A stretch of 56,637 nt of DNA, the filler included, from Dirinaria sp. TL-2023a (Eukaryota): NCBI GenBank assembly GCA_051941275.1. It is 3 parts of 3 records of this genome, joined end to end, with 100 filler letters (N's around TTAATTAATTAA, not from the genome) between each part and the next. Parts side by side here need not be neighbours in the genome. Positions count along the whole stretch, not along the records: positions 1 to 18,819 come from JAVEBF010000364.1; 2 more parts are not named here. One strand, written 5' to 3'. Of this stretch, positions 7,965-49,920 are shown one piece after another (positions within the stretch are counted from its first letter, which is position 1; every line of letters begins with the position of its first letter). The translations under genes were made by a program, and so were the position numbers. The notes beneath the pieces are model-generated. The model worked only from the letters and a program-made list of their open reading frames with translations, was not told the DNA's origin and ran no database searches.

Positions 7965-9560
7965 TCAACCCTTCCCCCTTTCCTTCTCCCTATCCCACGC
8001 CCGTCCCCCATTGCCGGTCAACCTAGCCTTCTTCCTTGCCCTTTCCTCCTCTTTGATATCCCTTGCCTTCTCTCTAGGATCAATAACCACCAATTCCTCT
8101 TCATTCTTCTTCTTCCACGTTAGATCCTTGCCCAGACGATCTTTTTCGAAGCTCAGCGCATGCGACATCCAGCTCTTATCATCCACATCCGCGCCTGATC
8201 CGCCAGCATCTGCATCCTCGGCTGCTTGCCATGACTTGCATGACTGGCAGTTGACTATGAAGTGAAGGTCGCAGACTGCTTCTTCATCTTCTTCCTTCTG
8301 CTTTCCTTCAGCATGGTTAGTGGATTTGGAGTTGCCAGGGGCAGGGGAGGACCCGGAAGCTGTTATGTCAATAGATGCGGAAGACGGTGATGTGGTAGCT
8401 GCTGCATTCTCGAGGCGGGCGCGAAAGGCATTCAATACATCCATGGTCTGTGAGTCTGTATTCCCGCCACCGCCGCCGGCTCTGCGTTTACGTCCCCGGA
8501 CAGAGGTTTCTGGGATCATAGCTTCAAGAGCGGATTTCTTGCGGTGCTCGGGTACTGGAGCGGCGACTGTCCGCTTCATTGATGCTTTCATCGCTGCGAT
8601 TTGCGCGTTAGTTCGGTCTAGCAGGCTCGATACTTTGCTGACTACTTCTGCTTCGGGTGAGCTGGGTGCGAGATGTTCTGTTTCTTCATCCTTCGGTAAT
8701 GGCAGCTGCGTATGTCGGTCTGGCTTCGCTAGGGGAGACGGCGGTGTTGGTGATCGAGGAACTTTGCGGCGAAGAGACTTGTCTGCTGGCTTTGCAGTTG
8801 GCCCCGCATCGCCATTCAAAGTTTTCGAAGACCCATTCTGCTCACTAGCGCTGACAAGCTTGGAGTTGAACTTTTCCTTTTTCATCACCGACCGCCCCTG
8901 CTCCTCCTCCACAGCCTCCTCTGCGCCGAAACTCAACAAAGCCTTTCCACCCCTTTTCTTGCCCTTCTTCTCTTTCCTATCAGCTGCCTCCTTGACCACC
9001 TCTTTGACCTTCCTCTCCGTCCTGACCATATCTTCAAAAGGGTTCACCAGTACCTGCGTGCCCGTCACTTTCGTCGGATATAATGGCCTCTCGCTTCCCT
9101 CACTTTCCAGCTCTCCCTCCCCCATCTTCATGACATTGAACATAGTATCCCCCACCACACGGCCAAACATAGTATTGCGCCCCTGTAACTCCGGTGTCGC
9201 TCCCAAGGTGATGAAAAACTGGCTGCCATTGTCATTCTTTGTGCCGCCATTTGCCATGCCCAATAAGCCCCGCCGATTATATTTGAGCCGACTGTGAAAT
9301 TCGTCGTCGAACAAGCCGCCGCGATAGATGGCTTCACCACCGGAACCGGTGCCTGTCGGGTCCCCGCCTTGAATTATGAAGGAAGGCACAAGCCGGTAGA
9401 AGATCGTGTCGTTGTAATAGCCGTCGAGGCATAGTTGGAGGAAGTTGCGCGAGGTGAGCGGCGTTTGTTTGGCGAAAAGGTCAAGGAGGATGTCCCCCGA
9501 GGTCGTGGTGAGGAGAACTTGCGCTGTGGGCTGCGGCTCGAGGTTATAGAGCGCGCTCAT
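7965..9560 (-). CDS. CWC27: Spliceosome-associated cyclophilin-type peptidyl-prolyl isomerase Cwc27
   Basis: 531-aa single-exon ORF: EPQPTA start, cyclophilin domain (RNFLQLCLDGYY, IQGGDPTGTGSGG, DEFHSRL, NGSQFFITL), C-terminal CDLHFIVNCQSC and LVVIDPREK. Confidence 0.95.
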   Translation of the reverse strand: MSALYNLEPQPTAQVLLTTTSGDILLDLFAKQTPLTSRNFLQLCLDGYYNDTIFYRLVPSFIIQGGDPTGTGSGGEAIYRGGLFDDEFHSRLKYNRRGLLGMANGGTKNDNGSQFFITLGATPELQGRNTMFGRVVGDTMFNVMKMGEGELESEGSERPLYPTKVTGTQVLVNPFEDMVRTERKVKEVVKEAADRKEKKGKKRGGKALLSFGAEEAVEEEQGRSVMKKEKFNSKLVSASEQNGSSKTLNGDAGPTAKPADKSLRRKVPRSPTPPSPLAKPDRHTQLPLPKDEETEHLAPSSPEAEVVSKVSSLLDRTNAQIAAMKASMKRTVAAPVPEHRKKSALEAMIPETSVRGRKRRAGGGGGNTDSQTMDVLNAFRARLENAAATTSPSSASIDITASGSSPAPGNSKSTNHAEGKQKEEDEEAVCDLHFIVNCQSCKSWQAAEDADAGGSGADVDDKSWMSHALSFEKDRLGKDLTWKKKNEEELVVIDPREKARDIKEEERARKKARLTGNGGRAWDREKERGKG

Positions 9561-10190
9561 GTTGAGAACAATCTAGGCTAAGATGTGAGGAGAGCTTCCT
9601 TTCCTGTGCTTGAAGCCTTCTCAATACTGACCAATGTTTAATGCATTGAGTGGAAATCGAAGTGATTTGAATGCTTGGCATATGGGAAAGATGGATTACA
9701 TGGTTCAGGGTTTTTTTAGGGTTGCTTGCGTGAATCTTCATCTGCAAAGTAAAATATACTGGTGAAATTTCTAGTTTCTACGAGTCCAAACAAATAAAAT
9801 TGTTGGAAAATTCGTGAGTCTGATATTCAACTCTAAGATTTCCGAGTCTGGCGGGAGAGAGAGGTTGGAAGTAATAATAATATCAAGAAACAGCACACAA
9901 GTAACGCCATGCAATCCAGCACCTCAATACTGACACTGCTGCTATGTTGTGAGACCAAGCGCACACGCAGCTGCCATTTGAAGTATTGGTCTCGCATCCA
10001 ACCAAGTCTCCGTGGTGAAACAAGAGGCATGATCCTCTAACGCACGCACGAGCCTCCACAAGACGTAGGATAAGTAATGTGTATGACAAATGCAACCCAT
10101 TGTCAGGTTACCGGCCCTACTCCTTTGACCGCGGTCTGGCTGCACTCCTGTCTGCAATCTGTCGTCCATCCCTCACCACCATCTCGGCAT

Positions 10191-11126
10191 CTAACAGCAT
10201 CCACCAGCCGAACCTGATTGCACGCCCTGCCCTTGCCCAACCTGCACTGTAGGCTTGTTGTTCACGGTTGTGGTACCCATTCGTTCTTTGATCTGACGGG
10301 CCATAGTCAGGAAAGCTTGTTCAACATTCGACGCGTTTTTGGCGGATGTTTCTAGGAAAGGAATGCCGAGGCTGTCGGCGAATTCCTATGGCAATATCAG
10401 TCAATGATCTTTCCTTCAAATTGCTCCTTTGGAAAGACCTACCTTTGCGACAGTATAGTCTACGACCTTCTTATCCGACATGTCACTCTTGTTGCCCACT
10501 AGCAGCTTGTTGACACCCTCGGTTGCGTAGCGGTCAATCTCTTGCAGCCACTGCTTGACATTGTTGAAGGAGTCCATGTCCGTAACATCGTAGACGACGC
10601 AAATACCATGAGCACCTCTGTAGTAAGAGGATGTGATTGTTCGGAAACGCTCTTGGCCAGCCGTATCCCACTGTACTACGTCAGCCTTGTCCTTAGAATG
10701 CCATTATGGCTTAGGTAGCGCGCACGATTTGCAGCTTTACGGTCTTGCCATCCAGTTCGATTGTCCGAATTTTCTGATCAAGTCAGCAACTCGAGTCAAG
10801 CCTGACAGCCAGAGAAATATCCTACGAAGTCAACCCCAATAGTCGAGATGTAGCTTTCCGTGTATGTGTCATCAGCAAATCGTAGTAGCAAACAAGACTT
10901 TCCCACTCCAGAGTCCCCGATCAGAAGTAGCTTAAAGAGGTAATCGTATCTGTACCGAGTCGGGCATCAGCATTGCCGCAGACCATCTCAGACTTGTTGC
11001 TTGTGGGGGGGCTTGGCTTTCAGAGAACTGAGCTATGGTGATGCAGATGCTGTACTCTAAAGGCATCGACGTCAGTCCATATCGACGACACTGCATTTTT
11101 CGAGGACCTTACTACTCTGGATTCAT
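10191..11126 (-). CDS. YPT1: Rab1/Ypt1 small GTPase (absent from the ORF track)
   Basis: Spliced translation [31 protein letters not shown]...[22 protein letters not shown]...GNKSD...ETSAK...GSAGGCC*, with a CC prenylation end. Confidence 0.97.
10950..11115 (-). other. Nested spliceosomal twin intron (stwintron), [D3,4] architecture, first intervening sequence of YPT1
   Basis: GA|gta[gtaagg...actgac...tttag]agt...gctgat...tacag|ATAC. Removing the 56-nt internal intron (11112-11057) creates GTAAGT, the donor of a 110-nt external intron. Confidence 0.85.
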
Positions 11127-11697
11127 GTTGACGAAACGAGACGGCCCTTGAATATCTTTGCGGGGATCAGTAGGTGCTCAAGGTTCGACTAGAGAACGGA
11201 ACTTCTGGCTGGTGAGAGGGTATCGAGCTTATAAGTGGCAAGGTGGATGAGGAGTGTCAAGAACGAGGTTCCTCTGGTCAGATAATCGCCCTGACGTTGT
11301 GTTTCGCGAGGCTCCCGTACAGCGGCTGATCTAGCCGCATCCGGTTAAACTTGCCAAGAGACCCAAATTCGGTCACCCCCTGATCAACTCCCGTGATCCA
11401 TTTCCGGCTCGTCAACATCACTCACCATTTTGTTGCATTATCGCAACTTCTGACTTGACTCAAATATAGATCCCATGCGAGAGTCATACCGTGGCGAGAG
11501 ACTCGTAAAAAATAACCATGGTACCTCATGATTGCTACAATCAAGTTCCTCTCGGCTCATGCTTGAATAATATGGGTACCTCTCCAGCCTATCCAAGATG
11601 TATATACACAATAATAAACTCGATTTGTTTGATAGCGTTCCATTTTATTGTCTCAAACAACCAACTGAAGCTGCTGCAGGGAGATTATCCTAAGCGC

Positions 11698-14269
11698 TCA
11701 GTATTCACTCAACCTCAGCTTCTTGCCAATAGCCTTTCTCGCATGTCCAATTGCCCTGTCACTCGGTCTCTCATCTTCTTGGCTTGCTTTAAGCGCTTGG
11801 AGGAGCATGCCTGCATCGAAAAAGCCATCTAGAGAATTTACTCAGTGCCGTTCCCTTGAAGCATGGTCAGTGGACAAGGAACACTCACACCCGCCAAGAC
11901 CTTCATCGTCGCTCTCCGCTTTGCTGTCATCAATCACCGCGTCTGCCTCTCTGATCGCTCGTCCCTGCTTGGGCGAAGTCTTCTGTAGCCTCTCTTCCGC
12001 CTCTCTTGCCCGGCTTGCTTTCATACTCTTTCCTTTGTTAACACTCCTTAAAAGCTTTCGCATTTCTAGGAGATAGGCTTCGATACTGTCCACGAATCGC
12101 TTCGTCTGCCTGTGCTTGCTGCTTGCGCAGACACTGATACTGTCGTCTTTAATGATGTAACCAAGACCGAATCCGTCGCCGGATGTAGGACCAAACCCGA
12201 AATGCCGTAGCGCAGGATTGCCGCAATTGGACGAACTGATGATGGTATTGTTAATCTTGTCCCAGCCGGAATCGGCAAAGATTGCAGGCATAGAGTGCGA
12301 GGGTACATGTGCGCTTCGCCCGGAAGGTGATCTATTCTCGTCCGCAGGCATACCAGAACTCGGCCTGCTGGGAGACCCAGGAGCACTATCGGACGTGCCG
12401 TCCCTGGGCGAAGAGTAACCGTTCGAGCTCATGCCATTGCTCGACGCAGCCTCTGCACCTTCTTCGTCCACCGCGCGCTGCCAAACACAGTACAATGCGT
12501 AGAGGTGTCTATCCTGCCCGAGAGCTTTGGCACATTCTTTCGTCAGGGCTGTGTGTCTCTGGGTTGCCTTTCGAAGGGCATCGACTTTGCGTTGAGGCGA
12601 ATTATCAGCCCAGAAGGTCTTGACGAATTCCACGCTCTCAGGCGTCACAGCACGAATAGCCTCCGTCCGCCCATGTAAGAAAACTTTAGTCATGGCCGGC
12701 TCGTAAACGTTCTCCACGCGTCCATATAACCCGTAGTAGGCAGCTTGGAAGGCCATCTGCACGAAAGCATCGGGTGAGAATCCCATCGAAGTGACGAAGT
12801 TCTTTCCGTAGCCAGCAAATTCAAGCATCTCAAACTCATTCTGCTGGATGAGATCAGCAAGTCGTGTTTCTGCGAAGCGTAAGGCGGTGCTGAGCTCAGG
12901 TAACATATCCCACTCAAGCTTGTGCGGAGTCGTGCTGACATCTCCAAAGCTATCTGGGTCTCGTTTCGCTGGATCTGGGCTGGTGGAAGTCCAAAGACTG
13001 GGAGCTTGTCCGTTTATGCTTTTCGCGAAGCGCAGTATGGTGTCGGTGTAAACGTCTGAAGCCATGCGGAGGACAGTGTGACCATCTACGCCAGTATGTT
13101 CGAAATTGATGCCTGCGCTCCCGTTCTTACAAACGATGATCTGCAATTTATCATACCAACGATTCGTACAAGTGCCTATTTGTACACCCTTAACGACTTC
13201 ACTAGTGCCGCATAACATGTTGCCACAAAGCTCTGAACCTGTCTTCGGCTCTGTATAGTCAAGGCAGAGTATGAAGAGCGCAGTGTCTACGATATTCAGA
13301 CACTCTGTGTTATTCGAATCCTCGTCGCGCGTCAAGACGTCTCTCAAGCCTGCCCAGATCTTACGGTTCTCAGTGCTTAAAACGCCAAGAGCGCCCTTGG
13401 CAGCATCCTGTATAGGAGTTTGCTCAGCATCGTCCACAATAACTTGGAGATTCAGGGCCATGTCCTTCTCAGTCATTATTAGATCGCTAGCTTCGTCCAT
13501 AGCGTCGAACCAGTAGAATTGACCCTTGCATAACACCACGATATGCTTGGACCCGGAATCTTGAGCAATATGGCAACCATTTTCTGTAGGTAGTCGAGCT
13601 GTGCCAAAGAGCCTCGAGTACTGATACATGCATAGTGGATTGCCTCGAAGTGTATCGGGTGGTAGCTCTTCTTTCCGCACCGCGCGTACGAATGAGAGCG
13701 AAGAATTGACCAGTGAAGCAGCTCGAGTGACTTGGTTGTTCCGTGCGGGCGTTGGATCGTCTTCGAGCAGGAAAAAGGGATTGAGGTTAAGAACAACAGA
13801 ATTATCGAAGTTCAGAAAGGAGTCATACCCTTAGCAGCATTAGGTGAATGCGGGTTTAAGATGCGCATTGTCTAAACTTACAGAACTGCTCGATATAACT
13901 AGTTTTCCCACTTGCGTATTTTTTCAGCCTTGATTGGAGCTCTGGCCCTTCGTTCTGGAGGAATTCTGCTACCGCTGCAGCCGTATCTGCCTGCTCTCGT
14001 CCATTTTGCAACGGCTTCAACGCATTGATGTACTTCTCACAAGTACTATCAAGTTCTGGAATGGGCAACTTCGGTAGATTATCCTGCGAAGCATAAGTGA
14101 TGCCGGGCTTGTAGTCCGGCTTGTCCGAGGCAAGAGGCTCTCGGACGGAGCGTGGATATGCTTTTTGAGAATCAGCAGGTGTGGAACGGTCGGTGTCTTT
14201 ATTCGGAGGTTGAGAGCCAGCTACGCTCTCGTTGAGGGACTTAGGCATGGTGAAAGTGCGTACTGTCAT
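11698..14269 (-). CDS. YAT1: Carnitine O-acetyltransferase (Yat1/FacC type), 3 exons
   Basis: LPKLPIPEL, NRWYDKLQIIV, catalytic FEHTGVDGH, SPDAFVQMAFQ, FLHGRTE, GFGPTSGDGFGLGY. Introns lie near 13880-13830 and 11890-11829; the protein ends KKLRLSEY*. Confidence 0.93.
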
Positions 14270-47193: not shown

Positions 47194-49503
47194 TCAATGC
47201 TGAATGGCCGTTAGAGTTGTCACAACAAGAGAATGAAATTTCTTCAAGGGGTCTTACATCCACGTCGTCCCAAGCACGGCCATGTACCTCAGCCAATTCG
47301 GTCATATTCATGACCTTGCCAGTCGTGACTGTTTTGGTTGTGAGCGCTTCAACTCGATAAGATCCACCAGCCAGTGCTATGCTCACAGTAACCTGCATGT
47401 ATTTTGGCATCGATCTCTACGCGGCTGTCTTCTGGGATCAGCTCGTCGGGGATCGGGACCCGCTCATAGATAGGGATCCCTTGTTCCACGATGGCTTCAT
47501 GCTTCATGCTATGGCTGATTAGCTCGTTCGCTCCTCAGACGCGCCCTTTTCCCTGAGAATAACATACTTTGACATACTAAGCATGCGGTCAATCTTCGTT
47601 ATGCCAAGCCAGTGAAGAATCTACCAGGCGTTACGTTAGCCCTATTGAATGGTAAGACGGAAATTGGGACTGTACATCGGGCATCAATGCTTGAAAACGC
47701 ATATCCTACAGAAAGTTATATCAATTTCAGTCTGAGTGATAGAGCTGCGGAGTAAGACCTTGACCCCAGCAATATTTTCTGTTCGCTGAAAATACTCGCT
47801 TGCACCTGTACATTAATCGTTAGGCGAAACAGAGTGAAAATTTTATTACTAGTGCGAGCCCACTCACGGTCGGTGCCTCGCTTCCCTGACAGATGTGGAA
47901 GTGAGCATTGAACAGAGAATATGTATTCTTGGAAGACATCTTACGAGCATTGTATACTAGGTATTTCGTGACTTCGCCTAATGCGCGCCCCTCTTTTCGA
48001 AAGTATATGACCACACCACTTCCACCCTGTTGTGCTTCCTTGACTGCTTCTTCAACACCGAAAATTAAATACGGCCGGCAGGTACAGATGTCAGACCCGA
48101 ATACATCGCTTCCATTGCATTCGTCATGAACCCGAAGGGCAAGGCGGACATTTGGATCCGACATCTTGGCTGGATCACCGAAACAGTAAACAGTCAGGCC
48201 GCCTATGGGAGGCAGGAAAAGCTTGATATCGCCTCGTGTTATGAGCTCAGGGAATGAGCCTCCTGTGTTTTCAAACAGCGATCTCCGTAGCGTGCCTTCA
48301 TCTGCGTACATTTCAGCAATACTTCCCAAAAGAAGTCTCTACGGGTAAGAGTTATAAATTGCTGTGTGCATACCAATGCCAAAGCGTTCAGCAACTCCAG
48401 CAAGGTACCAGACCGGCTCAACGGCGAATTTGGTGACTGCTAATTCGCCCGTTGCATTAAGACATATCTTTCCATCGGGGACGAGGCGACCATTGCGAAC
48501 GCTCTGCTCCAGTTCAGGCAGCTTCATGTGAGCTCTGGTAATTGCGATAGTTGGCCTAATATGGACGTTCTGTTCTTTTATAATATCGGCGAACAGCCAA
48601 GGACTTAAATGTCCCAAAGGATCCATTGCTACGATTTTCTTTGGGTCGGACCATTGTGGGAAGGGACCAACATTGACTGCAGGTTCTGTGTTTGTAAAGT
48701 CAGGTTTGTGGTCGAGGTCGAGGTTCTTGCTTGCTACAGCTAGCGCATGATATATGGAATACGAGCCTCCATGGGCACCGATTGCTGTGGACGGTCTTGA
48801 TTAGAGTGTTTTTCAGATCTCAAGAATGTATAAAGCTTGTCAATGTCCCAAGAAGATGCTTGAAATTCTCGATGTTCCACATGACAGCGTAGGTAACAAA
48901 AGGGATTTGCACATGGGACTTTGACTTTGCGCGATACACAGGAATGGCAGAGCGCCGGTCTCCCGCCTCCAGCGAGGTTCAAGAAAAGGCCAATTGACAT
49001 GTGAGAAACAGCGGCATACCGTTACGTCTTCGAACGGTGCTTGCGCTTCGTGAGACCACTACGGGACCTCGCCTCTTTGGGTTCGCGTGGCCCCAGTTCA
49101 TGATGATTGGATCTATACCTGATTGCCCAGGGTAAGTAGTAAGAATAATGCGTGAAGGGGCATTGGAAGCTCGAGCAATGAGCGAACGCTTTCTTTCCGG
49201 AGCATCATCTTGGTGGCCATCTACGGCCGAAAGGCTCGGTGAAGATGGAATTGGGATACTGGATTGGGAGAGCTCTTGATTAAACTTGTTGGTCGATACA
49301 AATCTTGGGTCATCCGTGGATTTATCCCATTTATTGGTTTCATTCACTTTCTGTATCGATGTATTTAAGCTAACTTTGCTTTCGAGAGCTTCGACGGCAG
49401 CAGAAAGCGATCGGTAGTCTTGTTGAATAGTCTTCAAGGTGTCTTGGATCTGTTCAAGTGCGGCGAAGTGGCGGTCAACTGGCTCTAAGCCTTGGCCTGC
49501 CAT
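47194..49503 (-). CDS. URC1: GTP cyclohydrolase II-like protein of the Urc1/Urg1 family (uracil catabolism), 9 exons
   Basis: RIILTTYPGQ, RRN|AIGAHGGSYSIYHALAVA, IRPTIAITRAH, VEPVWYL, RVHDECNGSDVFGSDICTCRPYL, RKEGRALGEVTKYLVYNARKRG, DMRFQALMPD, VEIDAKIHAGY. Confidence 0.9.
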
Positions 49504-49920
49504 CGAGCCAGCCTACTAGACAAGTCTCTGGTTTAAGAGTCTGTTAGAGTCAGACGGTTTGGAGGGAGGCTCTAAACTTCAATTCGAGATCTTTCGAGAT
49601 CTTGGTCAAGATTTGAAGAAGAGATCAGGCGCAGGATTAGGATCGATGAAAGGCATCTAGGTGAGGCTTACTACCTATACCTACTCCGGAATACCTTACT
49701 TGGTAAGGTAAGGTAAAGTAAGGTGAGGCACATGCGGGAACTATTTCAAGCTAGGTAAGGTACAGTAGGTACCTTACCTTTTTTGGCTTGCTCGCACATG
49801 TTTGATGCAGCGCTCTCGGTTACGCTTGCTGATCCGGTCCACGCAAGACAAGGACCTCTTTTGTCCGTCACCTCAGTGCTCGACATTGCCGTTACAACCT
49901 CGAATTCAGGACAGCCCATA

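Follow-up and report, generated by a model that had tools for sequence, protein, structure and literature searches.

The first intron of the YPT1/Rab1 gene of Dirinaria sp. TL-2023a (assembly GCA_051941275.1) is very probably a conserved, donor-disrupted stwintron of the [D3,4] type, in which a complete U2 intron of 56 nt appears to lie between the third and fourth nucleotides of the donor of an outer intron. The gene is found on the minus strand (11126..10191) of the window, by which is meant the whole 56,637-nt stretch of DNA that was analysed, and its open reading frames give a Rab1/YPT1 GTPase of 201 residues in five exons. Exon 4 matches the Pfam Ras family (E 2e-28), and the last exon shows 100% identity to proteins named Rab-1A or ypt1 by their sources, mostly from lichen-forming and other Pezizomycotina fungi; the product has the Ras-family fold and YPT1 orthology that mark a Rab1/YPT1 small GTPase. 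Of the flanking genes, both on the minus strand, one (7968-9572) encodes a prolyl isomerase of the cyclophilin type whose charged tail is long (Pfam PF00160, E 1e-41), and the other (11845-13830) a choline/carnitine O-acyltransferase (PF00755, E 8e-159). The parts of the gene are as follows, with the evidence for each in brackets.

10191..11126, minus strand, YPT1/Rab1 coding sequence, 5 exons, 201 codons plus stop (open reading frames; RNA contigs skip all four introns)
11116..11126, minus strand, coding part of exon 1, 11 nt, ATG AAT CCA GA, that is ATGAATCCAGA (sequence)
10950..11115, minus strand, whole intervening sequence of 166 nt, the proposed [D3,4] stwintron (RNA contigs join 10949 to 11116)
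11113..11115, minus strand, GTA, proposed nucleotides 1-3 of the outer donor (sequence)
11057..11112, minus strand, proposed inner intron, 56 nt (the sole valid inner unit under the published grammar)
11107..11112, minus strand, inner donor GTAAGG (sequence; the same hexamer is the homology-defined donor of intron 4 in locus L080)
11071..11076, minus strand, inner branch-point element ACTGAC (11 nt ahead of the inner acceptor)
11057..11059, minus strand, inner acceptor TAG (sequence)
11054..11056, minus strand, AGT, proposed nucleotides 4-6 of the outer donor (would meet GTA when the inner intron is removed)
10966..10971, minus strand, outer branch-point element GCTGAT (13 nt before CAG; fits DYTRAY(4,24)HAG)
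10950..10952, minus strand, outer acceptor CAG (sequence and RNA contigs)
10826..10949, minus strand, exon 2, A TAC GAT TAC ... GTT GAC TTC (open reading frame and RNA contigs)
10774..10825, minus strand, intron 2, 52 nt, donor GTAGGA (RNA contigs and donor table)
10726-10773, minus strand, exon 3, 48 nt (present in RNA contigs)
10671..10725, minus strand, intron 3, 55 nt, donor GTGCGC (RNA contigs and donor table)
10386..10442, minus strand, intron 4, 57 nt, donor GTAGGT (sequence, RNA contigs and donor table)

Exon 1 runs from an ATG at 11126-11124 to a final GA at 11117-11116, and exon 2 opens with ATACGATTAC from 10949, directly after the outer CAG. Read without splicing, exon 1 gives MNPE and then a TAG stop (GAG TAG), so the intron must begin after the GA. 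RNA data came from four small RNA-seq runs with a lichen metagenome label, all from one sample in one study, whose assembled contigs were aligned over window positions 10100..11300. Contigs of all four runs from this sample contain the junction 11116/10949, a skip of 166 nt with GT..AG ends on the minus strand; the exons are joined as GA/A, and all 166 nt are missing from the mature mRNA. The predicted mature junction is therefore real. A 1053-nt contig and its counterparts skip all four introns and are 95-99% like the window, and thus come from a close relative and not from the same strain. The 5' UTR reaches at least to 11248, the contigs being unbroken over 11116..11248. In a second RNA contig, of lower depth and from a more distant organism, a different exon 1 (ATGAATCCGGA) is joined to exon 2 at the same place. 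The initial annotation had identified the gene as YPT1/Rab1, which was confirmed, and predicted the 11116/10949 junction, which is present in the four runs of this one sample; its coordinates and letters are all present on the minus strand, and its description of a weak genomic donor GTAGTA, a complete 56-nt inner intron and a regenerated GTAAGT agreed with a check of the sequence.

The same RNA contigs bear on the suggestion that the gene start has been misread, the true start lying elsewhere and the "intron" being 5' UTR or an annotation artefact. Most database models of the gene do have other N-termini, as this account would expect, but it is refuted by the 1053-nt contig, which spans the 5' UTR, ATGAATCCAGA, the junction and every later exon. 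Transcript-like contigs make up 70 of the 82 loci in all, with ATGAAYCCNGAR directly followed by TAYGAYTA and exon 1 joined to exon 2, and these too speak against a misread start, which we consider extremely improbable. Among 80 clustered database models with the exon-2 peptide, only nine start with MNPEYDYLFK, a count that is biased because correct models collapse into few clusters; this suggests that annotation pipelines routinely fail at YPT1 intron 1. Most such models (among P0001-P0177) read ...R-YDYLFK, from inside intron 1, and in many, fusion with an aminopeptidase gene upstream gives a length of more than 1000 aa. The closest named model, P0001 (185 aa), is missing exon 3, whose 48 nt encode 16 residues and are included in the RNA contigs. 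Among P0045, P0109, P0169 and P0154, the Cudoniella, Aureobasidium and Hirsutella models start with MNPEV..., and one Pyricularia model starts with MNPEYF... Such starts imply GA-G-GT... or GA-GTAYTT... after exon 1, that is, different 5' ends in some lineages; they might reflect an intron shifted by 1 nt or a start resembling [D1,2], or else be artefacts of gene prediction.

With the YPT1 start in place, the genomic sequence at the 5' end of intron 1 is GTAGTA, with T at +5 instead of G. The text of the stwintron papers gives the donor consensus of Pezizomycotina as GURWGY (PMC7138796, PMC6616335), and donors are described in one passage as "strictly biased at positions 1, 2 and 5" (PMC9024468). 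GTAGTA mismatches this consensus at +4, +5 and +6, and it follows an exon whose last base is A instead of G. GTAAGG, which overlaps it, fits the consensus at +1 to +5, and GTAAGT, made by removing 56 nt, is a perfect consensus donor. For comparison, introns 2-4 of the same gene were collected from six lineages (n = 17), with ends set by the conserved protein and not by motifs. G was found at +5 in 16 of these 17 donors versus none of the four genomic intron 1 donors (Fisher p = 8e-4), all four of which have T. Intron 1 is also long, at 166-235 nt versus 52-90 nt (median 57) for the other 17 introns, and the proposed inner and outer units are nearer to normal intron size than is the whole; the 56-nt inner unit in the window is close to the other introns of its gene (52, 55 and 57 nt). 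Both GTAAGG and GTACGT, proposed as inner donors, are present among the 17 comparison donors. The inner donors are imperfect, GTAAGG having G at +6 and GTACGT and GTACGA having C at +4, and the strict published motif GTRWGH therefore misses those of all four lineages; the window's case is recovered only by a relaxed GTRNGN grammar. A naive finder that joins open reading frames across introns was also run over the window, and was discarded because it gave mostly false junctions (21 "unique" candidates, three with G at +5).

The layout of intron 1 follows that of known donor-disrupted stwintrons. Under the published search grammar, a branch element DYTRAY is followed after 4-24 nt by HAG, in an intron of at least 42 nt (text of PMC6616335). 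The inner unit has each of these parts and a donor, and so reads as a complete U2 intron, with the G at donor +6 falling outside the strict GTRWGH. It lies within the 6-nt donor of the outer intron and breaks it between nucleotides 3 and 4. When the inner unit is excised in silico, GTA and AGT meet as GTAAGT, the donor of a canonical outer intron of 110 nt (3+107) that continues to GCTGAT, 13 nt and CAG. The intervening sequence is gone from the mature mRNA at the predicted junction, in one sample from a relative 95-99% alike. The authors who curate stwintrons also look for the same stwintron to be predictable at the same position in orthologues, as set out in the text of PMC6616335; this was found in L022/L023, L029 and L031/L032, the further lineages described below, and L019 has a plain 31-nt intron there. 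Because the interruption follows nucleotide 3, the case does not belong to the published types [D1,2], [D2,3], [D4,5] or [D5,6], and with its hexamer split 3+3 it differs from the sensu lato types [D6,7] and [D7,8], in which the outer hexamer is intact.

Other ways of dividing the intron were considered. None of the alternative registrations of the inner unit gives GT..AG ends. A GCAG is found about 20 nt past the inner donor (11090-11112, minus strand), followed by TGTCGT, and would also rebuild a donor, GTATGT; this unit would be far below the 42-nt minimum, and the match is taken as coincidence. Tandem alternative donors 3 nt apart were rejected, since the downstream donor gives GAG TAA and not an in-frame product, and no such mRNA is found among the 82 loci. 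No Rfam families are found in intron 1, and its fold is no stabler than that of shuffled sequences (z = 0.29).

As a [D3,4] stwintron, intron 1 would be removed by two ordered reactions. At the 5' end, U1 would have just one good target, the GTAAGG that begins 3 nt into the intervening sequence. By intron definition, this donor would pair with the nearest ACTGAC, 11 nt and TAG, and the 56 nt would be removed first. This first ligation would unite GTA and AGT into a canonical GTAAGT right after exon 1, and a second standard U2 reaction would then take out the remaining 110 nt by way of GCTGAT, 13 nt and CAG.

The same nesting was found in other lineages by scanning metagenomes with P0001, the named protein model closest to the window, as the query; the best 80 of 525 hits were analysed. 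An intron is present at this codon in nine of these 80 loci, most others being intronless transcript contigs. The 5' end of intron 1 is readable in six of the nine, and these represent three lineages beyond the window: L022/L023, which are near-identical (7 differences in 179 nt), L029, and L031/L032, which are identical. All of them open with GA|GTR GTACGN. The published grammar, with WGH required after the acceptor, gives exactly one valid inner 3' site per intron in all four lineages.

Window: ACTGAC, 11 nt, TAG, then AGTACA; inner 56 nt, outer 110 nt; rebuilt donor GTAAGT
L022: ACTGAC, 11 nt, CAG, then AGTGTA; inner 89 nt, outer 90 nt; rebuilt donor GTAAGT
L029: GCTAAC, 10 nt, CAG, then TGTCTC; inner 99 nt, outer 136 nt; rebuilt donor GTATGT
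L031: GCTGAC, 10 nt, CAG, then AGTGTG; inner 102 nt, outer 84 nt; rebuilt donor GTGAGT

Thus, in the window and among the best 80 of 525 hits, GTR, an inner intron and WGT are found at the same codon in four of four independent Pezizomycotina-type lineages with a readable 5' end, and in all four the branch element stands 10-11 nt before the inner acceptor. In L022/L023, a TAG that follows the branch element by 4 nt, the published minimum spacing, precedes the CAG required by the model. The interiors of the four introns are unalignable, and only their ends align, so the splice signals have not been kept by mere sequence inertia.

The lineages were placed by their nearest named relatives. For the window, the closest named model belongs to a species of Lecanoromycetidae, which agrees with the RNA runs being labelled as lichen. 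In L029, the hypervariable tail has its nearest matches among Sordariales proteins (Rhypophila 95%, Cercophora 88%), and the PABA-synthase gene next to L031 is nearest to Pleosporales (Plenodomus 80%). L022 is Pezizomycotina-like and otherwise unplaced, its nearest names, on weak grounds, being Botryosphaeriales. On the basis of these relatives, the nesting spans at least three classes. The arrangement would be old; lineages whose nearest relatives are in Sordariales and Pleosporales, and one further Pezizomycotina lineage that is unplaced, all have the split donor GTR|WGT at this codon. A more distant and GC-rich (62%) fungal lineage, L019, whose protein is 87% identical to Pezizomycotina YPT1s, has a plain 31-nt intron at the same codon (L019:1967-2009; GTAAGC ... 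GCTAAT ... CAG) and no other YPT1 intron, which fits a simple intron preceding the nested one.

Three further loci are uninformative on the nesting. In the RNA contig L016, 279 nt or more of intron 1 are retained without its 5' end, and there is no clear inner site. L012 (1-155), which lacks intron 2, starts 4 nt before CAG|AGTACT, 150 nt upstream of exon 2; the CAG/AGTACT resembles the expected inner acceptor and outer donor half, but the contig is cut off at this point. In L080, just 36 nt upstream are present. A search of a prokaryote genome collection with a degenerate exon-2 pattern returned two short contaminant cDNA-like contigs with no introns.

How often such a layout would arise by chance was estimated with dinucleotide-shuffled interiors (20000 each), in which a valid inner 3' site with WGH appeared in 6.9% for the window, 8.8% for L022, 2.5% for L029 and 4.0% for L031. 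The product of the four figures is about 6e-6, a fair joint value only insofar as the interiors are independent. Over the whole window, the relaxed [D3,4] grammar gave two matches versus a mean of 0.22 in 100 shuffles, so a single motif match is weak evidence. The YPT1 case stands above chance because its match falls on exon ends confirmed by RNA and is seen again in three other lineages. The second grammar match is at 49450-49674 on the minus strand (GTA GTAAGC ... CAG); its 3' end lies inside an open reading frame starting MAGQGLEPV..., and it was rejected as a further [D3,4] stwintron, being probably a chance match. Palindromic runs (aaggtaaggtacc / ccttacctta) are found just upstream of that match (~49680-49790).

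A rival reading is one-step excision, in which a single long intron is cut at GTAGTA, U1 being possibly anchored on GTAAGG with cleavage 3 nt upstream, and the outer branch point and CAG are used while the inner ones are ignored or fortuitous. The final junction alone was observed in RNA, a valid inner 3' site does turn up in 2.5-8.8% of shuffled interiors, and the text of a 2025 paper reports occasional single-step removal of nearly a whole [D1,2] stwintron (PMC12403724). No intermediate lacking only the inner intron is present in the RNA contigs or the 82 loci, where assembly into contigs drops rare, transient forms. Against these points, one-step excision demands that the spliceosome bypass a perfect ACTGAC...TAG placed at the usual intron length of this genome. 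It also leaves unexplained why T stands at +5 in all four lineages when 16 of 17 other donors have G, and why, despite unalignable interiors, each of the four keeps an AG with WGT after it and a branch element 10-11 nt ahead of it. We regard it as unlikely, and favor the two-step removal of a [D3,4] stwintron.

The nested structure is probably trapped in evolutionary terms, as judged from what simple changes would do to the transcript. Repair of the genomic donor by T5->G (GTAGGA, like intron 2) would kill the inner GT and leave the inner 3' site as the nearest partner, with a dead product. If the inner donor paired with the outer acceptor, GTA would stay in the mRNA and create GAG TAA, a stop after codon 4. 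The latter pairing is the basis of another proposal, that both routes are used, with two-step splicing productive, the inner-donor/outer-acceptor mRNA stopping after MNPE, and the balance between them tuning YPT1 output. An analogous "missplicing" from inner donor to outer acceptor has been described for [D1,2] stwintrons in the text of the 2025 paper (PMC12403724), and the premature stop follows directly from the letters of intron 1. No such misspliced form is present among the 82 loci or in the RNA contigs, a weak objection since assembled contigs would drop it. It seems very unlikely that both routes operate in this way at YPT1. With regard to how the proposed [D3,4] stwintron arose, the doubled GTA GTA looks like a 3-nt donor duplication, and fits the origin by partial donor duplication, "stwintronisation", that was proposed by the authors of the Lipomyces work in the text of PMC7138796.

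Demonstrated stwintron types, as given in the text of the main papers, are [D1,2], [D2,3], [D4,5], [D5,6], [A2,3] and, sensu lato, [D6,7] and [D7,8] (PMC5639578, PMC7138796, PMC12403724). The 2025 paper states in its text that nearly all known stwintrons are [D1,2] (PMC12403724), and the published genome screens among those examined targeted, by their text, [D1,2] and [D5,6]. The type [D3,4] is absent from the type lists in the body of the stwintron papers examined (PMC5639578, PMC7138796, PMC12403724), and the text of four stwintron papers has nothing relevant on an interruption between the third and fourth nucleotides. YPT1, Rab, GTPase and GTP-binding have no mention in the body of the main stwintron papers, and full-text matching of stwintron together with GTPase gave only one general review from 2014. 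The initial annotation had named [D1,2], [D2,3] and [D5,6], correctly, in a list that omitted [D4,5], [D6,7], [D7,8] and [A2,3], which are also in print. Its suggestion that [D3,4] may be undescribed accords with the type lists in the body of the stwintron papers examined, and the conservation of gta[...]agt that it proposed as a check is seen as GTR, an inner intron and WGT at the same codon in all four readable Pezizomycotina-type lineages.

These observations lead to a broader proposal, to which we give about an even chance. Intron 1 of YPT1/Rab1 would be the first [D3,4] stwintron, the sole donor-disrupted type missing from the published series, and among the oldest stwintrons. It would have been fixed in an essential gene before the split of Lecanoromycetes, Dothideomycetes and Sordariomycetes, and kept since then because every single-mutation exit gives a dead transcript. 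The N-terminus of YPT1 would be misannotated in very many fungal genomes, and inner-donor/outer-acceptor pairing could act as a brake on expression. In nature, the pairing of fungal splice sites by intron definition is seen most clearly in stwintrons, which also serve as models of intron gain and loss. A [D3,4] case, if true, completes the donor series. Its host, YPT1, is essential, is present as a single copy, is highly expressed and can be aligned universally, so a simple TBLASTN search would suffice to follow the birth and any losses of the stwintron throughout the whole subphylum. Combined with the Lipomyces model, as presented in the text of PMC7138796, the case would illustrate concretely how a stwintron can originate by a 3-nt donor duplication (GTA GTA). 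The unexpected point is the cross-class conservation of nesting in an essential gene.

Among known systems, the closest are the [D2,3] stwintron of bioDA and the [D4,5] stwintron of a reticulon-like gene in Lipomyces lipofer, in which, as described in the text of the two papers, an inner U2 intron lies inside the outer 6-nt donor and two consecutive standard reactions follow, the first ligation rebuilding the donor (PMC5639578, PMC7138796). The proposed break in YPT1, between donor nucleotides 3 and 4, is one place off either of these, and the host gene differs; the bioDA and L. lipofer intermediates have been sequenced, whereas the YPT1 intermediate is predicted from sequence alone. The [D5,6] stwintron of rtnA (reticulon-like) is likewise donor-disrupted, in a ubiquitous gene, and kept across Pezizomycotina classes. 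It differs in donor position, and the breadth seen for YPT1 is four lineages, of which three could be placed, near Lecanoromycetes, Sordariales and Pleosporales. [D1,2] stwintrons share the class and the logic, and automatic annotation fails there, according to the text of PMC5587772, as it seemingly does at YPT1. In contrast to the YPT1 case, which starts with GTRGT and appears as a single old locus, [D1,2] stwintrons start with GGT and can multiply as "sister" copies; no sequence-similar copies of YPT1 intron 1 are present within the window. The Lipomyces [D6,7] and [D7,8] stwintrons also have two donors close together at the 5' end, but with an intact outer donor they can be spliced in one step, while the outer donor of YPT1 would be split. 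In the recursive splicing of long animal introns, the first ligation joins the upstream exon to an AG|GTAAGT ratchet point, which regenerates a 5' splice site and leads to stepwise removal of the intron. YPT1 intron 1 would share both the regenerated 5' splice site and the stepwise removal, but recursive splicing at a ratchet point was rejected as an account of it because exon 1 would take no part in the first step, which, as read from the intron's letters, unites two intronic pieces that form the two halves of the donor. Finally, the group II/III twintrons of Euglena plastids share the concept of an intron within an intron and an obligatory order of removal (text of PMC7138796); these are self-splicing ribozyme introns, whereas the YPT1 case would be spliceosomal.
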